A stretch of DNA of 64,000 nucleotides from Carpediemonas membranifera BICM (Eukaryota; Protista; Fornicata). The stretch spans positions 37,615 to 101,614 of the forward strand of contig JAHDYR010000041.1 of assembly GCA_019828565.1 (NCBI GenBank), written 5' to 3'. Below are positions 417-60,863 of this stretch, piece by piece (positions within the stretch are counted from its first letter, which is position 1; every line of letters starts with the position of its first letter). The position numbers and the translations under genes are program-made. The notes beneath the pieces are model-generated. The model was not told the DNA's origin. It ran no database searches and saw only the letters and a program-made list of their open reading frames with translations.

Positions 417-2456
417 ATGAGCAGTTTAGGGTCGAGGACCTCCCAGTTATCCGTCCTCACGCCGAAAGTCCGGAGGGGCAGCAGCTCCCGTCCGACGACT
501 CCTTGTTCTCGACCCGCCGGAGGCGAGCGTATACGACCAGTGGACCGCCCCGTCCACTCCGGACCTCACACGGGTGCGCCGGGAGCTCTTTCTACCGTCT
601 GTAGAAAGCGACGATGATGACACGTTCATCGTGCCAGAGCCTGAGGGCGACGACGTCGATATGGAGTGGAACCCCGGTTACACATCCGACGAGGTTTGGG
701 AGAAATATCAGAGAAAACCAGAGAATCTACGCAAAAACAGTGGAGTACCATCAGAGAACTACTAGACAGCTACCTGATCAAGGAAGGAAACGCCCGGACC
801 TTACTACTGCGCAGAAGTGACGACTTTTCCGAAAAGTCCTTCGGCGCAAGCTCCACAGCCCGCAAGGAAGTACTAACCAACGTCAGAAGGATCCTCACAG
901 CCTCAGGAGTGACCGACAACAGGGACACCATCCTCAGACATCCGAACGGCATCCACGGGCTTCGCGACCTCTTCATCATGGTCACAGAGGCCCTAGACCC
1001 CAGAGAAGCAGAGATTCAGCGCATCGCCAGCTCTAACGAGCCCACATCAGTGAGACCAGGGCACAAGGACATGGCCAGATGGCCCAAGGAGCAGTCCATC
1101 GAACAAGCAGTCCTGCAACCCAGAGGCCAGAACCCCATTCAGTGGGACAACGTCAGAGACAGCGTCGAAAACAGAGAGACTGGCATGTACTCGGTCATCA
1201 CAGGGACAGCAGAGGATGAAGCCCCCGAGTGCCTCAGCGGCGAGCAAGTGTGGGACCCGTCCAACAGAGGACCCATCACCAGAGTAGCCATAGAGCAAGA
1301 GGATGGCACCTTCAGAGTTCTACTGGACCTGGAAGACACGGAGGCATGGCCCATCACCAGGTACATGGAAGAGGCAAGAGACATCCTGAGACTGCAGGCA
1401 CCATAGGCACCAGTGGTGTGGCAAGCGGCATGGAATAGCTCAGGAGTAGACACCAGCGGCCGTAGCGGTATCCGGAAGCGAGGGGAAGAGACGCCGCTCA
1501 GTGGCAAGCCGCAGTTTGCAGTAGTCAGAGCCGAAATCATCGGAGCAGAGATCAGCCGTGACAAGAGAGCCGAACATGCCTCCCAGGAGGACAGGTCTGC
1601 TAGCACGGACATCGACAGCGACGTAGAGATGACGAGGCCGGACAGTATCTGTGGTAGCCAAGCCCCGGCAACCCCAGCGTCTCAGAGGATGAACAGAGTC
1701 AGCGCCAACAAGAGAACCACAAGGACCCCCAAGCGGCTGGTGCTGGGGGCGAGGCATCAGGCAAGCGTACTCAGCTTCCTATAGACAGTGCGAACAGAGA
1801 CAAGGAGGTGCCGCCGAGGATTAGCCTGGAAGACATCGTCCAAGAGCATATCAGAGATCAGCAGGAGGCCAGAAGGATGGCGGGCGAAGGGAGGAGCCAG
1901 CCCGAGGTCAGCAGCCTGCCTGTCACAGAGACCCAGCCGAGTCAGACTAGTCCTAGCAGCGATCGACTTCGAGTGTGGCTACACAGGCAGCTCAAGACAA
2001 GGCACACCAGCGATCCCAGTCGAAGGAGGCATTGTCCTGATAGATGTGGACAGCAGTGAAGTGGTCAGCCACGGTATGTTCTACCAGGACATGCCGCTCA
2101 ACAGAGTCGAGCAGTCAAGGCACACATCATGGGCCGTCACAGGCCTACCACCAGCGACCTTCGTAGATATAGCGACAGGCAGACCCCCCAGAGACCTGGA
2201 GCAGCACGTCCACACCTTCCAGGCGTGGGGCGACCGTCTAGCGACGGAGCTCAAAGCGTATGAGAGAAGAGAAGGCTGCAGAGTCCACCTGTTCGCCAAG
2301 GGAAAGCACATGGAGATGTTCCACCTCACGGATGCAGTGAACGGCTTAGCCGCAGAGAGCAGAGAGTACTTCGCGCAGAGACTAGTGGACGAGAACGAGC
2401 TGCCAACGCTGCTGGTCAGGGCTAGACCCGACCTCGACCAGAGATTCAGAGTCAAT
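417..2456 (+). pseudogene. Disrupted ORF1 of a non-LTR retrotransposon (diverged relative of 55892-57951), including the N-terminal part of a Maelstrom-like DEDDh domain
   Basis: 666-1406 aligns by eye with 55892+ (QKQWSTIRELLDSYL/QKEWDTIRELLTDYL; EEARDILRLQAP/EEGRDILRLQAP). TAG at 1404 where the other copy has GAG. 1788-2456 has IDFECG..PVEGG..WAVTGLPP..AKGKHME. Similarity stops near 2456. Confidence 0.85.
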
Positions 2457-21633: not shown

Positions 21634-23010
21634 TTACATCTCGACGTCGTCGACGGTGTTACCCGTGATGAGCTCCTTCTCCCACTGGTCACAGAACTCC
21701 TCGGACCGCCGCACGTCGAGGAACAGGTCCCTGCACTTGACGAAATGCTCCTCCTGGATCTCCTCCATGTTGTCCCGCCGGGCTACGAGATGGGCGGTGG
21801 TGAGCAGTTGCATGGCATACCGGATGGACGTCTCAGTGCCGATGGTTACCAGATAGTCCATGGCGTCCTCGTCGATCGAGTCGATGCCCTCAGCGTCCGC
21901 CCGGAGCTGCAGGATCTTCTGGATGTCTGCAGCGTCGTACGGCTTCGTGATGATGATGTTCATGCGGTCCAGCATGTCCGCGGGGATGCCGTGGGGCGAG
22001 ACAGTGTCGGTGCCCCTGATCTTGGTGTTCTCGCCCCTGTTGGTGGCCATGATGATGATGGGGGCCGTGCTCTGCTCCATCGCGCGGTTCATGAACGAGA
22101 AGCACTCGATGTCAAGCATGTGGGCCTCATCGATGAACAGCACACCGGGCACAATGGTCGCGCGGCCCTCCTCCCGCCACTCGGCTACCTTCTTATCGAC
22201 GGACTGGCGCACCTCCGGGTTGATCTCACCAGTGGCACCGCTGAACAAGGCCATGAAGCCCTGTGCCCTCGAGTTGATCACGTCGATCTCATGCAGGTTA
22301 ACGGTGTGTGAAACGTGCTTGCGCTTCTGCAGCTCACCAGCGGGGGTCTCGACGAGGCGGGTGCCTGGGCCCTGGGCGTCGTAGTCGCGGGTTTTGGACC
22401 AGGACCGGCCGAGCTTGGTCACCTTTCCGCTCGCCTTGTCGATAGAGATGACGTCGCCGGGAGTGACCTTGTCGGCTTCCATGGCGTCAATCATCTTGGC
22501 GCCGAGGTCGTACTCAGCCTCCATATCGGTCGTCTTCAGGGTGATGCGGCCAACCTTGTCGCCAGTGCCGTCAGTGGGGCGCTCGACGACCCACTCAACG
22601 ACCTCGCCCTCGACGAGCTCGGTCTCCTCCTGGATGCGGAGGCCAATGGACTTACGCATCGATTGAGTCAGGGACTCGGTCTTGTTGAACTCGTGGGAGA
22701 AGAACTCGGAACCAGAGACGGATGTAAACGGGATGTCGGCGCCGAGCTCGCGGGAAATTGCCATGGCGATGGCAGTCTTGCCGCTAGCAGGAGGACCAGC
22801 AATCAGGATACCACGACCAGCAATAGCACCAGCTTGGATCATCTTGACAATGATACCAGCCGACTTACGGGCCGTCTTCTGGCCAACGAGGCCTTGGCTC
22901 TCCTCGCGAGCGTTCAGCTTATCATCCAGCCCAAGGCCGCGAATATGTGAATGAGCACTAACACGCTCGACAGTAGGAACAGCCGTTTCGGTGGCACCAG
23001 GAATCTCCAT
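21634..23010 (-). CDS. RUVBL2: RuvB-like AAA+ ATPase 2 (reptin)
   Basis: HSHIRGLGLD, GPPASGKT, TLKTTDME, HEIDVINSR, FIDEAHMLD. Confidence 0.96.
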   Translation of the reverse strand: MEIPGATETAVPTVERVSAHSHIRGLGLDDKLNAREESQGLVGQKTARKSAGIIVKMIQAGAIAGRGILIAGPPASGKTAIAMAISRELGADIPFTSVSGSEFFSHEFNKTESLTQSMRKSIGLRIQEETELVEGEVVEWVVERPTDGTGDKVGRITLKTTDMEAEYDLGAKMIDAMEADKVTPGDVISIDKASGKVTKLGRSWSKTRDYDAQGPGTRLVETPAGELQKRKHVSHTVNLHEIDVINSRAQGFMALFSGATGEINPEVRQSVDKKVAEWREEGRATIVPGVLFIDEAHMLDIECFSFMNRAMEQSTAPIIIMATNRGENTKIRGTDTVSPHGIPADMLDRMNIIITKPYDAADIQKILQLRADAEGIDSIDEDAMDYLVTIGTETSIRYAMQLLTTAHLVARRDNMEEIQEEHFVKCRDLFLDVRRSEEFCDQWEKELITGNTVDDVEM

Positions 23011-35235: not shown

Positions 35236-35343
35236 TGTCGCAATACCGTATTAATATTTATATATTGTATGGGTGTCGTCTTGGTCCTACTTGGTCCGAG
35301 ACGACACCAGTGTGTCGAAATAAATTAGCGCATCGTTACAACA
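35236..35343 (+). repeat. Element B 5' LTR
   Basis: tgtcgcaatacc..ttacaaca; identical to 60756-60863. Confidence 0.95.
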
Positions 35344-35363
35344 GTGAATTCACTAGTGGCTAC

Positions 35364-40908: not shown

Positions 40909-41029
40909 TGTCGTGGGTCTTACCCAATATTTACATAGTTGTATTATTTACATCGTCTTCAGGTTTCTGTCGACACATTTGGTGTCGTCTCTTTTCCCTG
41001 TAAAGCTTTCTTGTCCCTAACGGACTACA
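40909..41029 (+). repeat. Element A LTR 1
   Basis: tgtcgtggg..ggactaca. Confidence 0.95.
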
Positions 41030-41047
41030 TTTCTAGAAATTCAAGCC

Positions 41048-44000
41048 ATGAACGATAAGAAACGCCTTATACCTCCTCTACTAACGGTTCCGTCAGTTGA
41101 GGCTCTCATCACTTTCGCCGAGGCCTTCCGCGACTATCGCGCTTACGGAGGCCATCGGGATATCTCAGACTTGATTGATAGCTCGGTACAAGACCTCATT
41201 GCCACGATCCTATCCACTACGCAGGACGAAGACGACGATCACACTCCCCTAGTAGCCTCAAGGAAGAACATCCGCGATCTGAAGGATCAGAGAACTCTCA
41301 AGCGGCTCGGACAAGCCCTGCAACCCAGAACCAAGACCTCACGCCTCCAGCTGTTCCGTCTAAGAGCCAACAGCTTCGACACGGTACAGGTCGCACGCGT
41401 CAATCGGAAGTTCACTCTCCTCTTGTCCCTGTTCGATGGGAAGTCCCTCAACGAGGACAACCTCAAGGAGGCGTATACGCGTGCCTTTAAGAGCAACCCC
41501 AAGGCCATGTACCGCATCCAAGAGCTCATCGAGGACCAGCCTCTGGAAAAGGCTATGCCCGCCGTCCTAGCCCTAGCACGTGAAGTCCAAGAGTCACGGG
41601 ATCTACTAAGCGCTTTCGAAGACGCTCCCTCTCGTCAACCCTACACGTCCCGCCATGACCGCAGACACGACTCGTCTGTGATCCCGAAGAAGCCCTCGTC
41701 CGATAACCGGTCGGCTGAAACCAACAAGGGCCACAAGGCAATCAAGAAGGAGAAGCCGGCAAAGGACTACTCTAACTACACCTGCTATAACTGCGGTGGC
41801 AAGGGTCACTCGGTGTTCAAGTGTAAGAAGCCCAAGCACACATGTAAGAAGTGTGGTCGTGTCGGCCACCTGGAGGATTACTGTAAATCCTCCAAGTGCG
41901 TGTGTGTTTTAAGTTCCAAGGAGTCACCGGCCGAGGGCGAACCGTCAAAGACTAAGGGCGAGACCGAGACTAAGCCATCTGTTCCCTTGATCAAAGTCCA
42001 GATTAATGGTCACAACCTCACTGCTCTACTTGATTCAGGTGCCGGAGTCACGATCATCAAGAGCACGTGGGCGTCCAAGCTTGACAAAAGTTAGCTCCGA
42101 GGTTATTCCGATCCGTACCGCCAACAAGGGTATTCTTCACGCGCAAGGCGCTGTTGAAGGCGACGTAAGACTGCTAGCGTCAGCGTTTACACCCAAGGCG
42201 TGCTCCTACAAGCCACGTATGCTGCTACTTGACACTGAGTTCGACATGATTATCGGATATCCAGACATGGTAGCACTGGGAATCCTTCCCCAAGCCTACA
42301 CAGACGAGCAAGATGATGACGAGATCGAGATTCCGGACGTGTACAAGTATCAGGCACCATTGTTTTCTTTGTCGCAGACCAGCATCGACCGGCAGGCCGA
42401 GCTAATCAGACGTTATAGCGACGTGTTCGAGGACCGTAGCGAACCCAGCCGCCTCGAGCCGTATGACCTCATCCTACGCGAGGACCGAGTGGTCAACGCC
42501 AGACCATACTTCGTCCCACCAGCCAAGGTCGACATAATACGGGAGCACATCGACGAGCTGTCCTTGAAGGGGTTTATCGAGAGAAGCAACTCACCGTACG
42601 CATCCCCGGCCATGACGGTGCCGAAGAAGGGCGGGAAGTCGCGCTTCGTCGTGGATTTCCGGCAGATCAACGAGATCACCCCCACTTTCGACTACCCGAT
42701 CCCAATGATCGACGAGGTGATCGCCCAACTACCCAACAAGAAGATCTTCGCCACACTAGACCTGTCGTCGGGTTATCACCAGGTCGAACTGACCAAACGC
42801 TGCCGCAAGTACACTGCGTTCACCACCATTCTAGGTCAATATCAATACACTAGGATGCCCTTCGGGCTAAGGAACGCAGGAGCTCACTTTCAGCGTGCCA
42901 TGGAGTCGGCTTTCGCCGAACTGGTTGGTCACGCCTGTTATATCTATATCGACGATATCATTGTCTTCGGGGAAAACGAGGAGGATTACCTCAAGAACCT
43001 GGAGAGCGTGCTGCAGCGTACTAGACAGATCAAGTTACAACTCAACCGTGACAAGTGCCAGTTTTCGAGGGCCGAGGTCGAGTTCCTGGGCAGGGTCATA
43101 TCCCATGGCTGTCAACGCATCGCAGCGGACCGCATTCAAGACATCCTGGATCTCGAAATGCCTAAGTCGGTCAAGGGAATGCAAGCGCTCGTCGGATTTC
43201 TTAACTATTTCCGGGATCATGTCCCTGGTTTCGCAGAAGTAGTACACCCCTTAACTCAAGCGATGGCCTCCAAGATCCCGCTGGGTGGCGACGAGCAAGA
43301 GCAAGCCCTACGCAAAGTCAAGACACTCCTCGCCCAAGCAGAAGCACTCGCCATCTTCGATGCGTCCAAGGAACACACCATCATGACCGACGCGTCAGGG
43401 AGTTGGCTACGGCGCTGTGCTATTGCAGGAAGGCCAACCCGTGTGCTTTATGAGCAAGGCCTTTGACCAAGTGCAATCGCGATGGTCGGTCGGAGAGAAG
43501 GAGGCATTCGCCATCGTCGCCGCCATTAAGCGATGGAACAAGTACCTCTCCTGGGGAAAGTTCACCCTTCTCACGGACCATCGCAACCTGATTTACATGT
43601 ACAAGTCGACTAACGCCAAGGTCCGCAGATGGGCTGAGGCTATGTCCGACATGGACTTCGACGTCAAGCACGTCGCTGGCCTTGATAACGGTGGGGCAGA
43701 CGGCTTATCGCGAGTGTACGTTATGCAGTCCGCATCAGAAGATGACGTTGAAGCAGAACACCTCACCGCCGGGGCCCACCTCTCCCGACGTGTAGTTACT
43801 GAACGACTCAAGGACCAAGGCAAGTCAGTATCACGTGAGACTGTCAGCAAGGTCATCGAAAACTGCCCGGTGTGCCAGGTGATTAGACGCCCTCCGGTTG
43901 ACAGCCCGTCAGGATTGCACACAGCCGTAGATCGCCCGTTCCGTAGGGTGGCAGTTGACACGATGGGGCCTTTCCCCTCCGTCGACGGCAAGGCTTACAT

Positions 44001-45000
44001 CACAGTCATGATCGACATGTGCAGTCGGTGGACTGAGCTAGTCGCATCTTCGAGTACCACCGGCGCGGCAGCAGCGGACGCCCTGGTCAACAACTGGATA
44101 TTGCGTTTCGGGTGCCCTGAGGTTCTCCAATCCGACGGAGGACCAGAGTTCAAGAACCAACTCTTCAAGCGCATCGCAGATGAGATGGGGTTCAAGATCC
44201 ATATTACCACGGCTCACCACCCGCAATCCAATGGGATGGTAGAGCGCGCCAACCAGCAAGTATTACGCATCCTCAAGGCGCGTAAGTTTCAGCTCAGAGG
44301 GTCAACCTGGATCGAGAATCTACCTGTCGCCCAGTTCATCGTTAATTCATCCCCGCGCACGTCTACACGCCTGTCACCAGCCGAGATAGTTCTCGGGTAC
44401 GACCTGAGAATACCACAGAACGTGTATGTGACTGATTCTAGTACAGCGAGCGCGAGTGAGTCTCACAGGGAAGCGGCCGCAGCGGCTGTCCAACTCGCCA
44501 GCAGCCGAGTCCAGGCGATGAGAGAGGACGCCCTCGCAAAGGCTACTGCCTCGAGGAATGAGATTATTAGCAGGTTCGTCCTAGTCAAGTACCCCTCTAG
44601 ACCACCGAACAAGTTGTCACCTGGATGGAGAGGGCCAATGCGAAGGCTCGCCGGAGTGAAACAACACGGTGTCGTTGTCGCGTATAAGGTTTTAGACCTA
44701 GCTGAGAAGGACAACTCGAAAGCGATCACGGTAGACGCATCGAGAGTTCGGAAGTTCAATCCCGGCAGGCTGACAGAAGATCAGATCAAAGCACTCGCAG
44801 CCACGGCTGACGACGAGTGGGAAGTTGAGCGAATCAGTCGATCTCGAGGTCGAGGCCCGATGTCCAAGCGGGAATACCTCGTCCATTGGGCTGGGTGCGA
44901 AGACGAAGAGGCTACGTGGCAAGACTATTCGTCAGTCAAGGACCTAGAGGCGCTAGACATATTCCTGAAGTCAGACGAGGCCAAGCGAGCCGGTCTGTAA
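41048..45000 (+). pseudogene. Element A gag-pol copy 1 (two +1 indels relative to copy 2)
   Basis: Extra T near 42082 and extra G near 43400. Confidence 0.93.
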
Positions 45001-45033
45001 ACCTTCAGCAGCTACTCAATCCAAACCTTTATC

Positions 45034-46281
45034 TCACTCCAAAACACCCCCGCTGAGAGCACCGTTCGCGTCCTCAGACCGGGTACAATAGCGAACTAGC
45101 TCGGGATGAGCAGCAAAGAACTTGACCCCAGCCTGACTATCACGGATTGCCTCGGTTGCCAGGATAATCGAGCTGTACTCGCGTCGAGCATAGTGCACGA
45201 GCAGACGCAGGGAATTCTCATGCAGATGGTGGCCAACGATTGTCTCAAGCACATACACACGACGTGGCTCGTTATGATCGAGCGCGACGGGCAGGACGTC
45301 ATTGCTGGGGACATCGAACAGGAAGTTGTCCATCAAAGAGTGGCGCACATGACCGAAACCAGTGGGGGTCCGGATTGCTTCAATGTATTGGCGGCTGAAC
45401 TCTCGCACGTCAGCAGCGTCTAGGATGCCCTGCGCATGGCCCACGACCATCATGTCATACAGGTCTGGGTCATTACCTAACATTATGGCGCGGCGCAGAT
45501 GAGGGGTCATGACGGTGTAACCACGCCCCGAGAGAAGCTGAATACGCTCGCGCAAACCCTGATGACAGAGCGTACGCGAGGTCGCGTCGAGGCGGCAGAG
45601 GTGCAAAGCCACCAGATCCTGATCGGTGGGATCGCCAGGCCGACCACACATAGCCCGAGTGTGGTACTCGCGCGATAGCGCCAGCAACACGAGACCATCG
45701 CGACAGATGTCACGCGCAACGGAAGAAGAGTTCTCCGTTGCGGCGAGATGCCCATATGAGTTGAGCATCCCGGCACGGAGCGCCCGCAAGGTACCAGACA
45801 TGTCTAGAGTGATGTAACTCACGCCCTCTGCGGCAACAGCGGTGATCATCTCCTCCAGAGAGAAGAGCGGCGAGACCTCGGTTTCCTCACTCCCCGACCC
45901 CGAGTCGCCGTGACCCGTCGGCCGGGATTCATCATCGCTACGAGCGGTCTCGGCCTCGCACGAGTCACCACGGTTCTCACGTGGAGAGCCAGCATCACAA
46001 CTCACCGTCTCAGCCTCCTCCGGGCTTTCGTCACCGCCCGGCGTCGGCGAACGCACACAAGAAGTGACCGGAGCACTCGTAACGCTCTCAGTAGAGGTGT
46101 CCCGGATAGATGTCACGTTTGTAGGAGCAGGTGCGCTGAACAAAGCGTGGTAGTCGCTGGCTGAGTTGAAAAAACGGGCACGATCGAGATAGCGGTTCAA
46201 GAAGCGTTTGAAGGCCTTTCGGGCTTTCTCCTCATCAAATAGCGCCAGCATCTGCGTAATCTGCTCACGTACGTCGGACAT
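45034..46281 (-). CDS. Element A antisense ORF with C-terminal chromodomain-like module, copy 1
   Basis: About 415-aa open frame between pol and the PPT; VYVLETIVGHHLHENSLRLLVHY. Confidence 0.75.
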   Translation of the reverse strand: MSDVREQITQMLALFDEEKARKAFKRFLNRYLDRARFFNSASDYHALFSAPAPTNVTSIRDTSTESVTSAPVTSCVRSPTPGGDESPEEAETVSCDAGSPRENRGDSCEAETARSDDESRPTGHGDSGSGSEETEVSPLFSLEEMITAVAAEGVSYITLDMSGTLRALRAGMLNSYGHLAATENSSSVARDICRDGLVLLALSREYHTRAMCGRPGDPTDQDLVALHLCRLDATSRTLCHQGLRERIQLLSGRGYTVMTPHLRRAIMLGNDPDLYDMMVVGHAQGILDAADVREFSRQYIEAIRTPTGFGHVRHSLMDNFLFDVPSNDVLPVALDHNEPRRVYVLETIVGHHLHENSLRLLVHYARREYSSIILATEAIRDSQAGVKFFAAHPELVRYCTRSEDANGALSGGVLE

Positions 46282-46931
46282 TGCTCGTTCGTCACTTCCC
46301 GTTTTCACTGAGAAAACAACAACTCGAAAGAAGTAGCAACCAACCTCAATGGAACCTGAAAGACACTGTTTTACGGCTAATTCAAGCCCGATTGATGTTA
46401 TTAAGGATGAACGCGGCCTTTTGCAGCCGCGAGAGAGAACGTCGCACCGTCGAGAGCAAAAAACGCGAGAACTCGCGAACGAAGCCGAATTGAGGCTTCT
46501 AATGACGTTTTTCGATCTCTATGTAATAAGGACGGCGACGTGAAGTACATACCAAGAGAAACACAAAGATCATCACAGTGAGCAGTTTTAGGCGCTCATT
46601 TGATCTAATCAATATTCAAACGGCCGTTTTACGACCGTGGAGGGGCGGAATGCCTCACGTAAGATCATTCTAATTACACAGCGCGCTAACAAGTGGTACC
46701 ACGATAGGATTTTGAGATCCGCAGATATTTTCCGAATCTTTCAGATTCACCCCGCTAATTCTGGCTCCCGACTTGAACAAGGCATTCACCCTGTACCCTG
46801 CCATGGTACAGAGTCTCGTAGACCAATGAGTGGCATCGGAGGTCTCGGGACTGGTCAAGTCCCTCATCGCACATTCGTTCGAGTGGCATACGCCTGAGGC
46901 CATGGCCCCTTTGGGGTCCATGGAGGGGCGG

Positions 46932-47052
46932 TGTCGTGGGTCTTACCCAATATTTACATAGTTGTATTATTTACATCGTCTTCAGGTTTCTGTCGACACA
47001 TTTGGTGTCGTCTCTTTTCCCTGTAAAGCTTTCTTGTCCCTAACGGACTACA
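46932..47052 (+). repeat. Element A shared middle LTR
   Basis: Identical to 40909-41029; preceded by the PPT. Confidence 0.95.
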
Positions 47053-47070
47053 TTTCTAGAAATTCAAGCC

Positions 47071-50000
47071 ATGAACGATAAGAAACGCCTTATACCTCCT
47101 CTACTAACGGTTCCGTCAGTTGAGGCTCTCATCACTTTCGCCGAGGCCTTCCGCGACTATCGCGCTTACGGAGGCCATCGGGATATCTCAGACTTGATTG
47201 ATAGCTCGGTACAAGACCTCATTGCCACGATCCTATCCACTACGCAGGACGAAGACGACGATCACACTCCCCTAGTAGCCTCAAGGAAGAACATCCGCGA
47301 TCTGAAGGATCAGAGAACTCTCAAGCGGCTCGGACAAGCCCTGCAACCCAGAACCAAGACCTCACGCCTCCAGCTGTTCCGTCTAAGAGCCAACAGCTTC
47401 GACACGGTACAGGTCGCACGCGTCAATCGGAAGTTCACTCTCCTCTTGTCCCTGTTCGATGGGAAGTCCCTCAACGAGGACAACCTCAAGGAGGCGTATA
47501 CGCGTGCCTTTAAGAGCAACCCCAAGGCCATGTACCGCATCCAAGAGCTCATCGAGGACCAGCCTCTGGAAAAGGCTATGCCCGCCGTCCTAGCCCTAGC
47601 ACGTGAAGTCCAAGAGTCACGGGATCTACTAAGCGCTTTCGAAGACGCTCCCTCTCGTCAACCCTACACGTCCCGCCATGACCGCAGACACGACTCGTCT
47701 GTGATCCCGAAGAAGCCCTCGTCCGATAACCGGTCGGCTGAAACCAACAAGGGCCACAAGGCAATCAAGAAGGAGAAGCCGGCAAAGGACTACTCTAACT
47801 ACACCTGCTATAACTGCGGTGGCAAGGGTCACTCGGTGTTCAAGTGTAAGAAGCCCAAGCACACATGTAAGAAGTGTGGTCGTGTCGGCCACCTGGAGGA
47901 TTACTGTAAATCCTCCAAGTGCGTGTGTGTTTTAAGTTCCAAGGAGTCACCGGCCGAGGGCGAACCGTCAAAGACTAAGGGCGAGACCGAGACTAAGCCA
48001 TCTGTTCCCTTGATCAAAGTCCAGATTAATGGTCACAACCTCACTGCTCTACTTGATTCAGGTGCCGGAGTCACGATCATCAAGAGCACGTGGGCGTCCA
48101 AGCTGACAAAAGTTAGCTCCGAGGTTATTCCGATCCGTACCGCCAACAAGGGTATTCTTCACGCGCAAGGCGCTGTTGAAGGCGACGTAAGACTGCTAGC
48201 GTCAGCGTTTACACCCAAGGCGTGCTCCTACAAGCCACGTATGCTGCTACTTGACACTGAGTTCGACATGATTATCGGATATCCAGACATGGTAGCACTG
48301 GGAATCCTTCCCCAAGCCTACACAGACGAGCAAGATGATGACGAGATCGAGATTCCGGACGTGTACAAGTATCAGGCACCATTGTTTTCTTTGTCGCAGA
48401 CCAGCATCGACCGGCAGGCCGAGCTAATCAGACGTTATAGCGACGTGTTCGAGGACCGTAGCGAACCCAGCCGCCTCGAGCCGTATGACCTCATCCTACG
48501 CGAGGACCGAGTGGTCAACGCCAGACCATACTTCGTCCCACCAGCCAAGGTCGACATAATACGGGAGCACATCGACGAGCTGTCCTTGAAGGGGTTTATC
48601 GAGAGAAGCAACTCACCGTACGCATCCCCGGCCATGACGGTGCCGAAGAAGGGCGGGAAGTCGCGCTTCGTCGTGGATTTCCGGCAGATCAACGAGATCA
48701 CCCCCACTTTCGACTACCCGATCCCAATGATCGACGAGGTGATCGCCCAACTACCCAACAAGAAGATCTTCGCCACACTAGACCTGTCGTCGGGTTATCA
48801 CCAGGTCGAACTGACCAAACGCTGCCGCAAGTACACTGCGTTCACCACCATTCTAGGTCAATATCAATACACTAGGATGCCCTTCGGGCTAAGGAACGCA
48901 GGAGCTCACTTTCAGCGTGCCATGGAGTCGGCTTTCGCCGAACTGGTTGGTCACGCCTGTTATATCTATATCGACGATATCATTGTCTTCGGGGAAAACG
49001 AGGAGGATTACCTCAAGAACCTGGAGAGCGTGCTGCAGCGTACTAGACAGATCAAGTTACAACTCAACCGTGACAAGTGCCAGTTTTCGAGGGCCGAGGT
49101 CGAGTTCCTGGGCAGGGTCATATCCCATGGCTGTCAACGCATCGCAGCGGACCGCATTCAAGACATCCTGGATCTCGAAATGCCTAAGTCGGTCAAGGGA
49201 ATGCAAGCGCTCGTCGGATTTCTTAACTATTTCCGGGATCATGTCCCTGGTTTCGCAGAAGTAGTACACCCCTTAACTCAAGCGATGGCCTCCAAGATCC
49301 CGCTGGGTGGCGACGAGCAAGAGCAAGCCCTACGCAAAGTCAAGACACTCCTCGCCCAAGCAGAAGCACTCGCCATCTTCGATGCGTCCAAGGAACACAC
49401 CATCATGACCGACGCGTCAGGAGTTGGCTACGGCGCTGTGCTATTGCAGGAAGGCCAACCCGTGTGCTTTATGAGCAAGGCCTTTGACCAAGTGCAATCG
49501 CGATGGTCGGTCGGAGAGAAGGAGGCATTCGCCATCGTCGCCGCCATTAAGCGATGGAACAAGTACCTCTCCTGGGGAAAGTTCACCCTTCTCACGGACC
49601 ATCGCAACCTGATTTACATGTACAAGTCGACTAACGCCAAGGTCCGCAGATGGGCTGAGGCTATGTCCGACATGGACTTCGACGTCAAGCACGTCGCTGG
49701 CCTTGATAACGGTGGGGCAGACGGCTTATCGCGAGTGTACGTTATGCAGTCCGCATCAGAAGATGACGTTGAAGCAGAACACCTCACCGCCGGGGCCCAC
49801 CTCTCCCGACGTGTAGTTACTGAACGACTCAAGGACCAAGGCAAGTCAGTATCACGTGAGACTGTCAGCAAGGTCATCGAAAACTGCCCGGTGTGCCAGG
49901 TGATTAGACGCCCTCCGGTTGACAGCCCGTCAGGATTGCACACAGCCGTAGATCGCCCGTTCCGTAGGGTGGCAGTTGACACGATGGGGCCTTTCCCCTC

Positions 50001-51021
50001 CGTCGACGGCAAGGCTTACATCACAGTCATGATCGACATGTGCAGTCGGTGGACTGAGCTAGTCGCATCTTCGAGTACCACCGGCGCGGCAGCAGCGGAC
50101 GCCCTGGTCAACAACTGGATATTGCGTTTCGGGTGCCCTGAGGTTCTCCAATCCGACGGAGGACCAGAGTTCAAGAACCAACTCTTCAAGCGCATCGCAG
50201 ATGAGATGGGGTTCAAGATCCATATTACCACGGCTCACCACCCGCAATCCAATGGGATGGTAGAGCGCGCCAACCAGCAAGTATTACGCATCCTCAAGGC
50301 GCGTAAGTTTCAGCTCAGAGGGTCAACCTGGATCGAGAATCTACCTGTCGCCCAGTTCATCGTTAATTCATCCCCGCGCACGTCTACACGCCTGTCACCA
50401 GCCGAGATAGTTCTCGGGTACGACCTGAGAATACCACAGAACGTGTATGTGACTGATTCTAGTACAGCGAGCGCGAGTGAGTCTCACAGGGAAGCGGCCG
50501 CAGCGGCTGTCCAACTCGCCAGCAGCCGAGTCCAGGCGATGAGAGAGGACGCCCTCGCAAAGGCTACTGCCTCGAGGAATGAGATTATTAGCAGGTTCGT
50601 CCTAGTCAAGTACCCCTCTAGACCACCGAACAAGTTGTCACCTGGATGGAGAGGGCCAATGCGAAGGCTCGCCGGAGTGAAACAACACGGTGTCGTTGTC
50701 GCGTATAAGGTTTTAGACCTAGCTGAGAAGGACAACTCGAAAGCGATCACGGTAGACGCATCGAGAGTTCGGAAGTTCAATCCCGGCAGGCTGACAGAAG
50801 ATCAGATCAAAGCACTCGCAGCCACGGCTGACGACGAGTGGGAAGTTGAGCGAATCAGTCGATCTCGAGGTCGAGGCCCGATGTCCAAGCGGGAATACCT
50901 CGTCCATTGGGCTGGGTGCGAAGACGAAGAGGCTACGTGGCAAGACTATTCGTCAGTCAAGGACCTAGAGGCGCTAGACATATTCCTGAAGTCAGACGAG
51001 GCCAAGCGAGCCGGTCTGTAA
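47071..51021 (+). CDS. Element A intact single-ORF Gag-Pol (2 CCHC, protease, RT, RNase H, integrase, chromodomain)
   Basis: 1316 aa; LLDSGA, YIDD, TDAS, HHCC, DDE, EWEVERI..EYLVHWAG..ATW. Confidence 0.98.
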   Translation: MNDKKRLIPPLLTVPSVEALITFAEAFRDYRAYGGHRDISDLIDSSVQDLIATILSTTQDEDDDHTPLVASRKNIRDLKDQRTLKRLGQALQPRTKTSRLQLFRLRANSFDTVQVARVNRKFTLLLSLFDGKSLNEDNLKEAYTRAFKSNPKAMYRIQELIEDQPLEKAMPAVLALAREVQESRDLLSAFEDAPSRQPYTSRHDRRHDSSVIPKKPSSDNRSAETNKGHKAIKKEKPAKDYSNYTCYNCGGKGHSVFKCKKPKHTCKKCGRVGHLEDYCKSSKCVCVLSSKESPAEGEPSKTKGETETKPSVPLIKVQINGHNLTALLDSGAGVTIIKSTWASKLTKVSSEVIPIRTANKGILHAQGAVEGDVRLLASAFTPKACSYKPRMLLLDTEFDMIIGYPDMVALGILPQAYTDEQDDDEIEIPDVYKYQAPLFSLSQTSIDRQAELIRRYSDVFEDRSEPSRLEPYDLILREDRVVNARPYFVPPAKVDIIREHIDELSLKGFIERSNSPYASPAMTVPKKGGKSRFVVDFRQINEITPTFDYPIPMIDEVIAQLPNKKIFATLDLSSGYHQVELTKRCRKYTAFTTILGQYQYTRMPFGLRNAGAHFQRAMESAFAELVGHACYIYIDDIIVFGENEEDYLKNLESVLQRTRQIKLQLNRDKCQFSRAEVEFLGRVISHGCQRIAADRIQDILDLEMPKSVKGMQALVGFLNYFRDHVPGFAEVVHPLTQAMASKIPLGGDEQEQALRKVKTLLAQAEALAIFDASKEHTIMTDASGVGYGAVLLQEGQPVCFMSKAFDQVQSRWSVGEKEAFAIVAAIKRWNKYLSWGKFTLLTDHRNLIYMYKSTNAKVRRWAEAMSDMDFDVKHVAGLDNGGADGLSRVYVMQSASEDDVEAEHLTAGAHLSRRVVTERLKDQGKSVSRETVSKVIENCPVCQVIRRPPVDSPSGLHTAVDRPFRRVAVDTMGPFPSVDGKAYITVMIDMCSRWTELVASSSTTGAAAADALVNNWILRFGCPEVLQSDGGPEFKNQLFKRIADEMGFKIHITTAHHPQSNGMVERANQQVLRILKARKFQLRGSTWIENLPVAQFIVNSSPRTSTRLSPAEIVLGYDLRIPQNVYVTDSSTASASESHREAAAAAVQLASSRVQAMREDALAKATASRNEIISRFVLVKYPSRPPNKLSPGWRGPMRRLAGVKQHGVVVAYKVLDLAEKDNSKAITVDASRVRKFNPGRLTEDQIKALAATADDEWEVERISRSRGRGPMSKREYLVHWAGCEDEEATWQDYSSVKDLEALDIFLKSDEAKRAGL

Positions 51022-51054: not shown

Positions 51055-52302
51055 TCACTCCAAAACACCCCCGCTGAGAGCACCGTTCGCGTCCTCAGAC
51101 CGGGTACAATAGCGAACTAGCTCGGGATGAGCAGCAAAGAACTTGACCCCAGCCTGACTATCACGGATTGCCTCGGTTGCCAGGATAATCGAGCTGTACT
51201 CGCGTCGAGCATAGTGCACGAGCAGACGCAGGGAATTCTCATGCAGATGGTGGCCAACGATTGCCTCAAGCACATACACACGACGTGGCTCGTTATGATC
51301 GAGCGCGACGGGCAGGACGTCATTGCTGGGGACATCGAACAGGAAGTTGTCCATCAAAGAGTGGCGCACATGACCGAAACCAGTGGGGGTCCGGATTGCT
51401 TCAATGTATTGGCGGCTGAACTCTCGCACGTCAGCAGCGTCTAGGATGCCCTGCGCATGGCCCACGACCATCATGTCATACAGGTCTGGGTCATTACCTA
51501 ACATTATGGCGCGGCGCAGATGAGGGGTCATGACGGTGTAACCACGCCCCGAGAGAAGCTGAATACGCTCGCGCAAACCCTGATGACAGAGCGTACGCGA
51601 GGTCGCGTCGAGGCGGCAGAGGTGCAAAGCCACCAGATCCTGATCGGTGGGATCGCCAGGCCGACCACACATAGCCCGAGTGTGGTACTCGCGCGATAGC
51701 GCCAGCAACACGAGACCATCGCGACAGATGTCACGCGCAACGGAAGAAGAGTTCTCCGTTGCGGCGAGATGCCCATATGAGTTGAGCATCCCGGCGCGGA
51801 GCGCCCGCAAGGTACCAGACATGTCTAGAGTGATGTAACTCACGCCCTCTGCGGCAACAGCGGTGATCATCTCCTCCAGAGAGAAGAGCGGCGAGACCTC
51901 GGTTTCCTCACTCCCCGACCCCGAGTCGCCGTGACCCGTCGGCCGGGATTCATCATCGCTACGAGCGGTCTCGGCCTCGCACGAGTCACCACGGTTCTCA
52001 CGTGGAGAGCCAGCATCACAACTCACCGTCTCAGCCTCCTCCGGGCTTTCGTCACCGCCCGGCGTCGGCGAACGCACACAAGAAGTGACCGGAGCACTCG
52101 TAACGCTCTCAGTAGAGGTGTCCCGGATAGATGTCACGTTTGTAGGAGCAGGTGCGCTGAACAAAGCGTGGTAGTCGCTGGCTGAGTTGAAAAAACGGGC
52201 ACGATCGAGATAGCGGTTCAAGAAGCGTTTGAAGGCCTTTCGGGCTTTCTCCTCATCAAATAGCGCCAGCATCTGCGTAATCTGCTCACGTACGTCGGAC
52301 AT
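51055..52302 (-). CDS. Element A antisense ORF, copy 2
   Basis: Same protein as copy 1 with one T/A difference. Confidence 0.75.
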   Translation of the reverse strand: MSDVREQITQMLALFDEEKARKAFKRFLNRYLDRARFFNSASDYHALFSAPAPTNVTSIRDTSTESVTSAPVTSCVRSPTPGGDESPEEAETVSCDAGSPRENRGDSCEAETARSDDESRPTGHGDSGSGSEETEVSPLFSLEEMITAVAAEGVSYITLDMSGTLRALRAGMLNSYGHLAATENSSSVARDICRDGLVLLALSREYHTRAMCGRPGDPTDQDLVALHLCRLDATSRTLCHQGLRERIQLLSGRGYTVMTPHLRRAIMLGNDPDLYDMMVVGHAQGILDAADVREFSRQYIEAIRTPTGFGHVRHSLMDNFLFDVPSNDVLPVALDHNEPRRVYVLEAIVGHHLHENSLRLLVHYARREYSSIILATEAIRDSQAGVKFFAAHPELVRYCTRSEDANGALSGGVLE

Positions 52303-52953: not shown

Positions 52954-53074
52954 TGTCGTGGGTCTTACCCAATATTTACATAGTTGTATTATTTACATCG
53001 TCTTCAGGTTTCTGTCGACACATTTGGTGTCGTCTCTTTTCCCTGTAAAGCTTTCTTGTCCCTAACGGACTACA
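52954..53074 (+). repeat. Element A LTR 3
   Basis: Identical to LTRs 1 and 2. Confidence 0.95.
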
Positions 53075-55891: not shown

Positions 55892-57951
55892 ATGCAGGGA
55901 AAAGAGAACAACCAGATGAGAGTGGAGATACCAGATAAGATCAGGGAATCCGCTCAAAAAGAGTGGGACACGATTAGAGAGCTACTAACGGACTACTTGA
56001 TGGAAGAGAAGGGCACCAGAACGCTACTACTGCGTCGCGCAGAAGATTTTTCAGGGAGATCGTTCGGAGCTAGCTCCAGAGCACGAAAAGAGGTGATACT
56101 GAATGCGAGGAGAGTGCTACGTGCCGCAGGGATCACCAACAACAGAGACGAGATCCTCCGTAACCCCAACGGAATCCTAGGGCTTCGAGACATCTTCTAC
56201 GCAATGACAGAGGCCTTAGACCCGAGAGAGGACGAAGAACGGCGCCTAGCAGAGGCCAAGGAGAACGTCACCATCCAACCAGGGCACAGGGACATGAGCA
56301 AGTGGCCTTCCGACCACAAGATCGAAGAGGCCATCCTCCAACCGAGAGAACAGAGCAACATCGAGTGGGACAGTGAGAGAGACAGCATTGAGGGCAGAGA
56401 GACGGGCACATTCACGCTCACATCAGGGTATGGAGATGAGAAAGCCGTCGAGGCAATCGCAGGAGAGGAGGTGTGGGACCCCACTAACCAGGGCCTGGTC
56501 ACCAGGATCGCTATGGAGCAGGACGATGGCACCTACAAGGTCCTCATCGACATCAGAGATTGCAGAGCATGGCAGATCACCAGATTCATGGAGGAAGGCA
56601 GGGACATCCTCAGGTTGCAGGCCCCGGAGGCGCCGGCGGTCTGGCAGGCAGCTTGGTGCAAGACAGGAGTCAACACGGAGGGCAGAGGCGCAATAAGGGC
56701 ACAAGGACAGGAGACGCCGCTCAGCAACAAGCTCGTCTTCTCTGACGTCAGGGCCAGGGTGATCAATGCCACCAGCCGCCGCCAAAAGAGGGACAGGGAA
56801 GAAGAGTCAGACAACGAGAGCGGCGCACAGACCAGCCAAGAGGAAGACCCCAAACCCAAGGTCGTGTTGACACAAGCGGAAGGAGTGAGCGCCAGAAGGG
56901 GCCTTGGAGCCGAGCTTGATCAGCAGGAAGAAGAGAGCATACCCCGAGCATCAGAGGGAAGTGCATCAGCAGGGAGCCTACCGGAGGCATTGCAGAGTCA
57001 GGGTCAGAAGAAGCTCATCCTCGGTTCTATCGACTTCGAGTGTGGAGATCCTGGGAGTGAGAGGGCAGGGATCAGTGCGGTGCCGACAGAGGGGGGCTCG
57101 TGCTAGTGGACGTCGAGACGGGGGAGGTCGTTGGCCATGGCCACGGCCTCTTCTATGAGCCCAACCTGCCGGCCAACAAGGTGGACCAGAGCAGATACGC
57201 GACGTGGGCAGTGACGGGGATTCCCCCAGCGACGTTCGTGGAAGTGGACACAGGGGAGGTGCCGATGGACTATCAGCAGCACTTCAGCAGATTTAGAGAG
57301 TGGGCCACGCGGCTCGCAGCCAAGCTGAGAGACAGAGAGACCAGGGAGAACTGGAAGCTAGTCCTTCATGCCAAGGGCGTCCACATGGAGAAGTTCCTCC
57401 TGACGAACGAGGTCAACGGGCTCAACAGGGACACCAGGGACTTCTTTAGAATGAGGCTGGTGGACGATAGCGAGCTGGCCGACGCCATCGAGGAGCTCGC
57501 CCCGGATAAGGCAAGAGAGTACAGGGCAAACTACGAGATCAAGAACTACAGGGAGATGGCAGATATATGGGCCAGCCAATGGCAGCGCAGGGAGCTCACG
57601 AAGGGGGCCTGTCCGTACCACAGGCACACTGCAGGGTGCTACCATTGTGCGCTGGCAGATGCAACGTTGTTCGCGGCGAAGGTGTGGGGCATGATGCTGA
57701 AGAAGATGAGCACGCCGGATCTGGAGAGTGCGATGGGTAACGCTTTCAACAGCATGTATGACACGGTCAGGGACGCAGGGGTATTCTTTGAGAGTGATAG
57801 TGACAGTTGTGAGTTCTTTTCTTTTAATCCAACCCTGGCTCCCACCCAGGGTCCGGCATTAGCTGAAATGCACTGCCGGTGGGCTGTGGCGGCAGCCAAA
57901 GGGGGGGTCACGCCAATGCGCCCCCTCCTAAGTATCCCTGCCCGAAGGTAA
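55892..57951 (+). CDS. Non-LTR ORF1: unknown N-terminal domain plus Maelstrom-like DEDDh nuclease (one indel in the G run near 57095)
   Basis: IDFEC..PTEGG..VTGIPP..HAKGVHME..CPYH..HCALAD; the copy near 2020 reads through this junction in frame. Confidence 0.82.
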
Positions 57952-60755: not shown

Positions 60756-60863
60756 TGTCGCAATACCGTATTAATATTTATATATTGTATGGGTGTCGTC
60801 TTGGTCCTACTTGGTCCGAGACGACACCAGTGTGTCGAAATAAATTAGCGCATCGTTACAACA
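60756..60863 (+). repeat. Element B 3' LTR
   Basis: Identical to 35236-35343; preceded by ggggggggaggggtag. Confidence 0.95.

Follow-up and report, generated by a model that had tools for sequence, protein, structure and literature searches.

An antisense gene with a probable degenerate chromodomain in a Ty3/gypsy element of Carpediemonas membranifera

The retroelement nest and element A

Carpediemonas membranifera is a free-living, anaerobic metamonad that is not known to have canonical replication-origin machinery. The stretch of DNA analysed here, called the window, covers 64,000 nucleotides of one contig of Carpediemonas membranifera. It holds the gene of a RuvB-like protein (21634–23010), which was found in the protein collection searched, and from about 32.7 kb onward it is occupied by a nest of retroelements. 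Element C has identical 108-bp LTRs (35236–35343 and 60756–60863) and a 4-bp target duplication. Its LTRs interrupt element B within the integrase, and between them lies a 25-kb nest that contains C, a LINE-like element, the units A1 and A2 of element A, and a piece of element D. Measured in pieces, element B has 48–73% amino acid identity to element A, and its 3' end, a possible slot for a relative of the antisense gene described below, is interrupted by another element and by the window end.

Element A is a tandem LTR-A1-LTR-A2-LTR array, the units of which are 99.9% identical over 6.1 kb. The 5' LTR of A1 (40909–41029, plus strand) is likely 121 bp long and bounded by TG...CA; it occurs in three 100% identical copies, the third stopping exactly on CA. 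The middle LTR, common to A1 and A2 (46932–47052, plus strand), and the 3' LTR of A2 (52954–53074, plus strand) were recognised by sequence identity. An alternative LTR of 68–69 bp, combined with a TGG primer site, was dropped for this element, as the 121-bp LTR is the better fit. On its left (40909) the array is bordered by a LINE-like 5' piece and on its right (53074) by a piece from the middle of another element's pol, and no target duplication flanking the array was found. These unlike flanks, together with the missing duplication, suggest that the array may be the product of recombination between two A insertions.

Given the 121-bp LTR, a 10-bp palindrome (41030–41039, plus strand) lies where the tRNA primer-binding site would be. 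Such perfect palindromes directly follow the 5' LTRs of A1, of A2 (47053–47062) and of element C (35344–35353), replacing a TGG tRNA primer site, and are common to two different Ty3/gypsy families, A with a 121-bp and C with a 108-bp LTR; 10-bp palindromes of this kind are found at 80 of 63,991 window positions. A palindromic site at the same place is described for the fungal GalEa copia elements (PMC5445492). The post-LTR palindrome may mark a tRNA-independent mode of priming. Additionally, the A LTR at 40909–41029 and the C LTR at 35236–35343 have in common an AT-rich motif, located at offset 17–36 in both, as well as a 28-nt motif in opposite orientations, which in C makes up one of the arms of a 13-bp hairpin.

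The gag-pol gene of A2 (47071–51021, plus strand) is intact and encodes 1316 aa with zinc knuckle, protease, RT, RNase H, integrase, and chromodomain. That of A1 (41048–45000, plus strand) is broken by two 1-bp insertions relative to A2, at about 42081 and 43398, which may be genuine or assembly errors. The order protease-RT-RNase H-integrase within one polyprotein between LTRs agrees with a chromovirus architecture, and the integrase C-terminus carries a chromodomain (44818–44970, plus strand, in A1), which on the A2 copy (aa 1257–1307) matches PF00385 above the cut-off, with an E-value of 1.6e-6. By this domain content, element A is a chromodomain-bearing Ty3/gypsy element. A polypurine tract (about 46922–46931) stands beside the 3' LTR of A1, and a second copy of its motif lies at 46639–46649, about 280 bp upstream of the LTR-adjacent one.

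The exact gag-pol and antisense proteins of element A are absent from the protein collection searched, which may be explained by the masking of repeats ahead of gene prediction in the published C. membranifera annotation (PMC8516963). No relative of gag-pol turned up in the metagenome, viral, and prokaryote DNA collections that were scanned.

The antisense gene

The initial annotation proposed a minus-strand ORF of about 415 aa inside element A, stopping 33 bp from the pol stop, and this description holds. The antisense ORF (aORF) runs from 46281 to 45034 on the minus strand, between pol and the 3' LTR, and encodes 415 aa (P0001) followed by TGA, with no internal stop. The TAA of pol ends at 45000, and a spacer of 33 bp (45001–45033) separates the convergent stop codons. 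In unit A2 an intact second copy (51055–52302, minus strand) differs from the first by one synonymous change and by T347A. The aORF is thus carried by both element A units of the window, and two more near-identical gene models lie elsewhere. The three substitutions between A1 and A2 (45243, 45775, and 46404), all of them transitions, fall within or just upstream of the aORF and none in the 4 kb of gag-pol; they are too few to interpret.

In 9000 simulated pol-to-LTR intervals of 1931 bp (Markov orders 0–2, 3000 simulations each), no Met-started ORF reached 415 aa and the longest measured 325; the aORF is not due to chance. Its synonymous codon use is gene-like (z 3.6 and 4.4 against shuffles) and weaker than that of host genes, and on gag-pol-trained synonymous usage the plus-strand shadow frame scores equally. 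The 79 in-frame open codons before the ATG score as non-coding and the related proteins P0006 and P0008 begin at a homologous Met, which makes 46281 the likely start. The 650-bp non-coding stretch upstream (46282–46931), which ends in the polypurine tract, is the presumed location of an antisense promoter. Being long, antisense, and situated in the interval from pol to the 3' LTR, this aORF is, as judged from its sequence, a real antisense gene in the slot termed aORF-3R.

Relatives of the antisense protein

A phmmer search over 1.84 billion representatives returned five matches (E <= 2.4e-13), all of them hypothetical proteins of C. membranifera. P0004 is 95% identical to the last 99 aa of the aORF protein. 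P0005 has 43% identity, P0006 32% over near full length, P0007 34%, and P0008 35% to the N-terminal half. P0009, likewise a C. membranifera hypothetical protein, is a cluster member and a near-identical copy. Conservation among relatives, which would have spoken for a gene if present, was indeed found: four diverged Carpediemonas proteins (locus tags J8273_7566, J8273_6971, J8273_0022, and J8273_1499) have 32–43% identity and a common layout. Twenty-four residues, mostly in the helical core, are invariant in all four diverged members (P0001, P0005, P0006, and P0007). No relative outside C. membranifera was found by phmmer, by a word-based protein search, or by scanning metagenome, viral, and prokaryote collections at the DNA level; the word-based search gave no relative for P0001 and, with the alignment as query, only two known members.

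Indirect signs point to repeat clusters as the probable setting of the diverged relatives. P0004–P0009 are spread over five contigs, with the near-identical copies P0004 and P0009 on two other contigs; several relatives are fragments; the gene model of P0007 is fused to a LINE piece; and J8273_6935 and J8273_6971 lie on one contig with the integrase fragment J8273_6925, within 46 locus tags. Two LINE-associated stretches of the window (1938–2276 and 57067–57438) match the first 157 aa of P0007. This match opens with an acidic D-x-E motif, which we take to recall a DEDD exonuclease; P0007 has no match in Pfam and no sequence match in the PDB.

Protein layout and helical core

The layout common to the relatives consists of a short helical N-terminus, an acidic linker, a helical core, and a C-terminal module. 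The N-terminal segment (aa 1–50; 46132–46281, minus strand) can be aligned to the beginnings of P0006 and P0008, and its helices come from a low-confidence model. The acidic linker named in the initial annotation is borne out as a Ser/Pro/Thr-rich stretch (aa 51–140; 45862–46131, minus strand) with 19 D/E against 6 K/R and 36 S/P/T in 90 residues. Both the short helical N-terminus and the linker are common to P0001, P0006, and P0008. The helical core (aa 141–310; 45352–45861, minus strand) contains the invariant H261-x-x-R264-A-x-M-L-G269 and Y275; Y299 and R304 are likewise invariant across members.

The earlier description of the core as helical and of no known family also stands. An alignment-based model depicts aa 186–315 as a helical domain at moderate confidence (pLDDT 58–81, in blocks), and no fold match rises above noise. 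In a wide structural search, which barely covered the C-terminal module, the best hit was the Cdt1 C-terminal domain with Z 5.0, followed by several helix-turn-helix proteins at Z 3–4.5, all in the noise range of the tool. A viral fold library yielded nothing at E <= 0.001, searches of Pfam, NCBIfam, and PHROG assigned no family to P0001, and PDB sequence searches gave chance matches only.

Several other identities were considered and rejected. An Env-like ORF does not agree with the antisense orientation and with the lack of any transmembrane segment, the top 19-residue hydropathy being 1.08. The H-x-x-R motif is presumably reminiscent of that of tyrosine recombinases; a tyrosine recombinase was discarded, as the spacing differs and there is no Pfam match. 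An integrase core was suggested by a single-sequence model of pLDDT 36 (matches at E 0.01–0.06) and was rejected after a profile test, in which the family profile against 32 integrase cores gave P 0.28–0.33 with 7 columns aligned, and neither an rve match nor the D-D-E triad was found.

The C-terminal module

The motifs VYVLETIVGHH, LRLLVHY, and FFAAHPEL, on which the initial annotation had based a chromodomain-like C-terminus, are all present in the protein. The module they form (aa 343–395; 45097–45255, minus strand) has a good probability of adopting a chromo fold in degenerate form, as profile alignments, language-model features, and weak Foldseek matches agree, none of them past its standard threshold. 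The earlier claim of a chromodomain-like end is therefore likely correct on three weak, partly independent lines of evidence, of which none is decisive, and Pfam Chromo gives no match.

The first line consists of profile comparisons with a set of retroelement chromodomains made of 2 from the window and 12 search matches, of which 2 partial rows were left out of the profile-profile tests. Against 12 retroelement chromodomains, the module profile aligned over the whole domain (55 columns) with P 0.0011 and a probability of 20%, and the HH probabilities for the chromodomain match range from 5 to 20%. A three-member module profile without P0005 gave P 0.003, with none of 200 column shuffles scoring as high, and with P0005 P 0.007; the family profile of aa 136–415 gave a weaker signal when chromodomains alone were the target (P 0.072, exceeded by 2 of 150 shuffles). 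On a retroelement chromodomain HMM, the P0001 module scored above every one of 955 overlapping windows taken as controls from real proteins. With the same HMM, P0006 was equalled or beaten by 29 of these windows, P0007 by 141, and P0005 by 642, so that two of the four diverged members (P0005 and P0007) score barely or weakly. Pairwise alignment with P0012, the best chromodomain-bearing pol, was negative for the most part: the shuffles matching the true score numbered 98 of 1000 for P0001, 5 of 1000 for P0004, 832 of 1000 for P0006, and 995 of 1000 for P0007.

The other two lines come from hypothesis-blind searches, both pointing to chromo. With P0004 as query, the best three ESM Atlas clusters were Chromo at 0.89, a value which, being under 0.9, is a lead only by the calibration of the tool; 170 of 256 features were common, and the ten best family matches all belonged to one clan. 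A Foldseek search, for which the alignment-based model was the query, gave a list of 47 rows, of which none reached E <= 0.001; among the targets listed, all six shorter than 100 residues were chromo or chromo-shadow domains (E 1.5–4.6). These targets presumably align to the aORF C-terminus, the output giving no alignment ranges. At the module, the model itself depicts a beta hairpin and a helix with pLDDT 26–52.

The statement that the module lacks the usual Trp cage is correct to the letter, yet aromatic residues remain at two of the three cage positions. By alignment, the first is Y343 (F or Y in relatives) and the second Y364, a Tyr in all four members, whereas the third is lost: the four members have R, C, N, or V there. 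The module is accordingly not a canonical group I HP1-type chromodomain, which would have a Y24, W45, Y48 cage and pass the Pfam Chromo cut-off. Since the third aromatic position is lost, the module would likely not be a canonical H3K9me reader. The group II chromodomains of plant chromoviruses and the chromo shadow domains, as described in PMC3350952 and PMC6317226, resemble it as chromo-type modules with an incomplete aromatic cage. In group II, however, cage position 1 and usually position 3 are lost, W45 is kept, and the domain is fused to integrase (PMC3350952, PMC6317226), whereas the aORF module keeps position 1, has a Tyr at position 2, lacks position 3, and belongs to a separate antisense protein.

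Possible origin from a pol end

An S-x-L/M-x-x-F motif at aa 315–320 (45322–45339, minus strand), just ahead of the module, has S315 and F320 invariant in all four members and resembles the strand that closes the C-terminal domain of gypsy integrase. When compared with pol tails extended 60 residues upstream, the family profile gave a collinear match of 78 columns, which spans the S-x-L-x-x-F strand, the linker, and the chromodomain (P 0.0065; none of 300 shuffles). The module and the pol chromodomain lie tail-to-tail, and from the first cage residue to the protein end there are 60 residues in pol and 73 in the aORF. The collinear match and the tail-to-tail layout suggest an old inverted copy of the pol end. 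A recent inverted duplication was rejected, as the DNA shows no inverted similarity to the pol end (405 of 500 shuffles scored at least as well). The aORF module is about 20% identical to the pol chromodomain, with different cage residues. Because similarity at the DNA level is no longer present, the old copy is inferred from the protein. The chances are evenly balanced that aa 315–395 represent such a copy (last integrase strand, linker, and chromodomain), moved to the opposite strand and fused to the helical domain.

A broader scenario, which is conceivable and on the unlikely side, is that a metamonad chromovirus lineage copied its pol tail antisense, joined the copy to a novel helical fold, and kept the product across several diverged families as a second, independent reader of chromatin whose cage is rewired, and so as a chromatin regulator encoded by the element.

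Possible function and alternatives

The reading preferred here, put forward tentatively and a little short of an even chance, is that the aORF encodes an accessory chromatin protein with a probable degenerate chromodomain, which docks on chromatin and regulates its own element. The gene would be transcribed from a promoter inside the 650 bp before the 3' LTR, and the protein would be imported into the nucleus. The chromodomain would anchor it on nucleosomes or nucleic acid, and transcription or silencing of the element would be acted on by the helical core and acidic linker. A chromatin-targeting or anti-silencing role, which the initial annotation had considered, would be plausible.

Yeast Ty1 has p22, a truncated element protein that restrains copy number. 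By a comparable route, the aORF protein could be a self-limiting decoy, in which the module, resembling the pol tail, competes with the integrase chromodomain for its chromatin dock and restrains copy number, and the opposite strand would allow its regulation apart from gag-pol. This is rather unlikely, as the low identity to the pol chromodomain and the different cage residues make a common ligand doubtful and the conserved residues lie mostly in the core instead of the module.

Chromovirus integration is steered by chromodomains, as described in PMC3350952, and element A sits in a deeply nested cluster; accordingly, the aORF protein might bind integrase or the pre-integration complex and steer insertions into existing transposon clusters. 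Such a tether is improbable, since the integrase already has its own chromodomain and element C, nested in the same cluster, has no aORF relative within the window.

Just as improbable is a passenger with no role in transposition, either a captured Carpediemonas host gene or a family whose relatives are host genes. In its favour, what is known of the relatives is limited to annotated gene models of C. membranifera, and no relative was found outside the species. Against it stand the near-identical copies P0004 and P0009 on two other contigs, the fragmentary state of several relatives, the LINE fusion of the P0007 model, and the three models that share a contig with an integrase fragment and lie no more than 46 locus tags from it.

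The invariant H261, R264, Y275, Y299, and R304, together with the integrase-core matches of the single-sequence model, could also speak for a real accessory gene whose C-terminus is not chromo but RNase H-like or unrelated, with an enzyme built around H-x-x-R. That model has very low confidence and the profile test against integrase cores was negative, while the alignment-based model and the Atlas both favour chromo, which leaves this reading with a slim likelihood. Least probable is that convergent antisense RNA, acting through double-stranded RNA or transcriptional interference, is the function and the protein secondary: the 33-bp stop spacing would make overlapping 3' ends likely and such a role was suggested for plant aORFs (PMC7264820), but 32–43% protein identity with invariant motifs requires selection on the protein.

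Known systems and significance

The preferred reading of an accessory chromatin protein can be set beside known antisense genes of LTR retrotransposons. Elements with an aORF-3R include maize Grande with gene23, rice RIRE2, Silene Retand, and PvRetro13 (PMC7264820, PMC11963269); the gene23 product of Grande is described as nuclear, with its own antisense promoter (PMC7264820). The Carpediemonas aORF resembles these in position, orientation, presence in intact copies, lack of similarity to known proteins, and room for an antisense promoter. The plant hosts described are non-chromovirus elements, and their aORF-3R products mostly carry a Transposase_28 domain (PMC7264820, PMC11963269). The Carpediemonas aORF, by contrast, lies in a metamonad element that bears a chromodomain of its own, and its product, for which Pfam gives no match, likely carries a second chromodomain at the end. 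Transposase_28 (PF04195), the mark of the Retand TRP28 type, has no match in P0001 or in six relatives. Moreover, the plant extra-ORF domain table (PMC6317226, Additional file 4), in the part of the source available, contains no chromodomain; its threshold of E <= 1e-10 in at least 5 elements would miss the present module too.

Outside plants, brtn of the Botrytis Boty-like Ty3/gypsy element is likewise an antisense extra gene (PMC7264820, PMC8365987). It is fungal, no search gave a sequence link to the aORF protein, and it is set apart here by its description in those sources. The VANDAL anti-silencing proteins and the EpiLTR elements with methyltransferase and chromodomain (bioRxiv 10.64898/2026.05.21.726589), as described there, are similar in that an element bears a chromatin-directed module. 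In the aORF protein, by contrast, the searches detected neither a methyltransferase nor any other enzyme family. In the literature covered, mostly outside subscription journals and in partial texts, there was no account of Carpediemonas LTR elements or of the aORF protein, and no antisense ORF was described as having a chromodomain. The layout of an antisense accessory ORF is already known from Grande, Retand, and Boty, and the make-up of the protein appears to be new.

According to the account in PMC7264820, the origin and function of antisense accessory genes in LTR retrotransposons are not established. The finding extends this layout to metamonads. Furthermore, the aORF module is traceable, probably to the pol end of the element itself, which would provide a concrete route by which an antisense accessory gene may originate.
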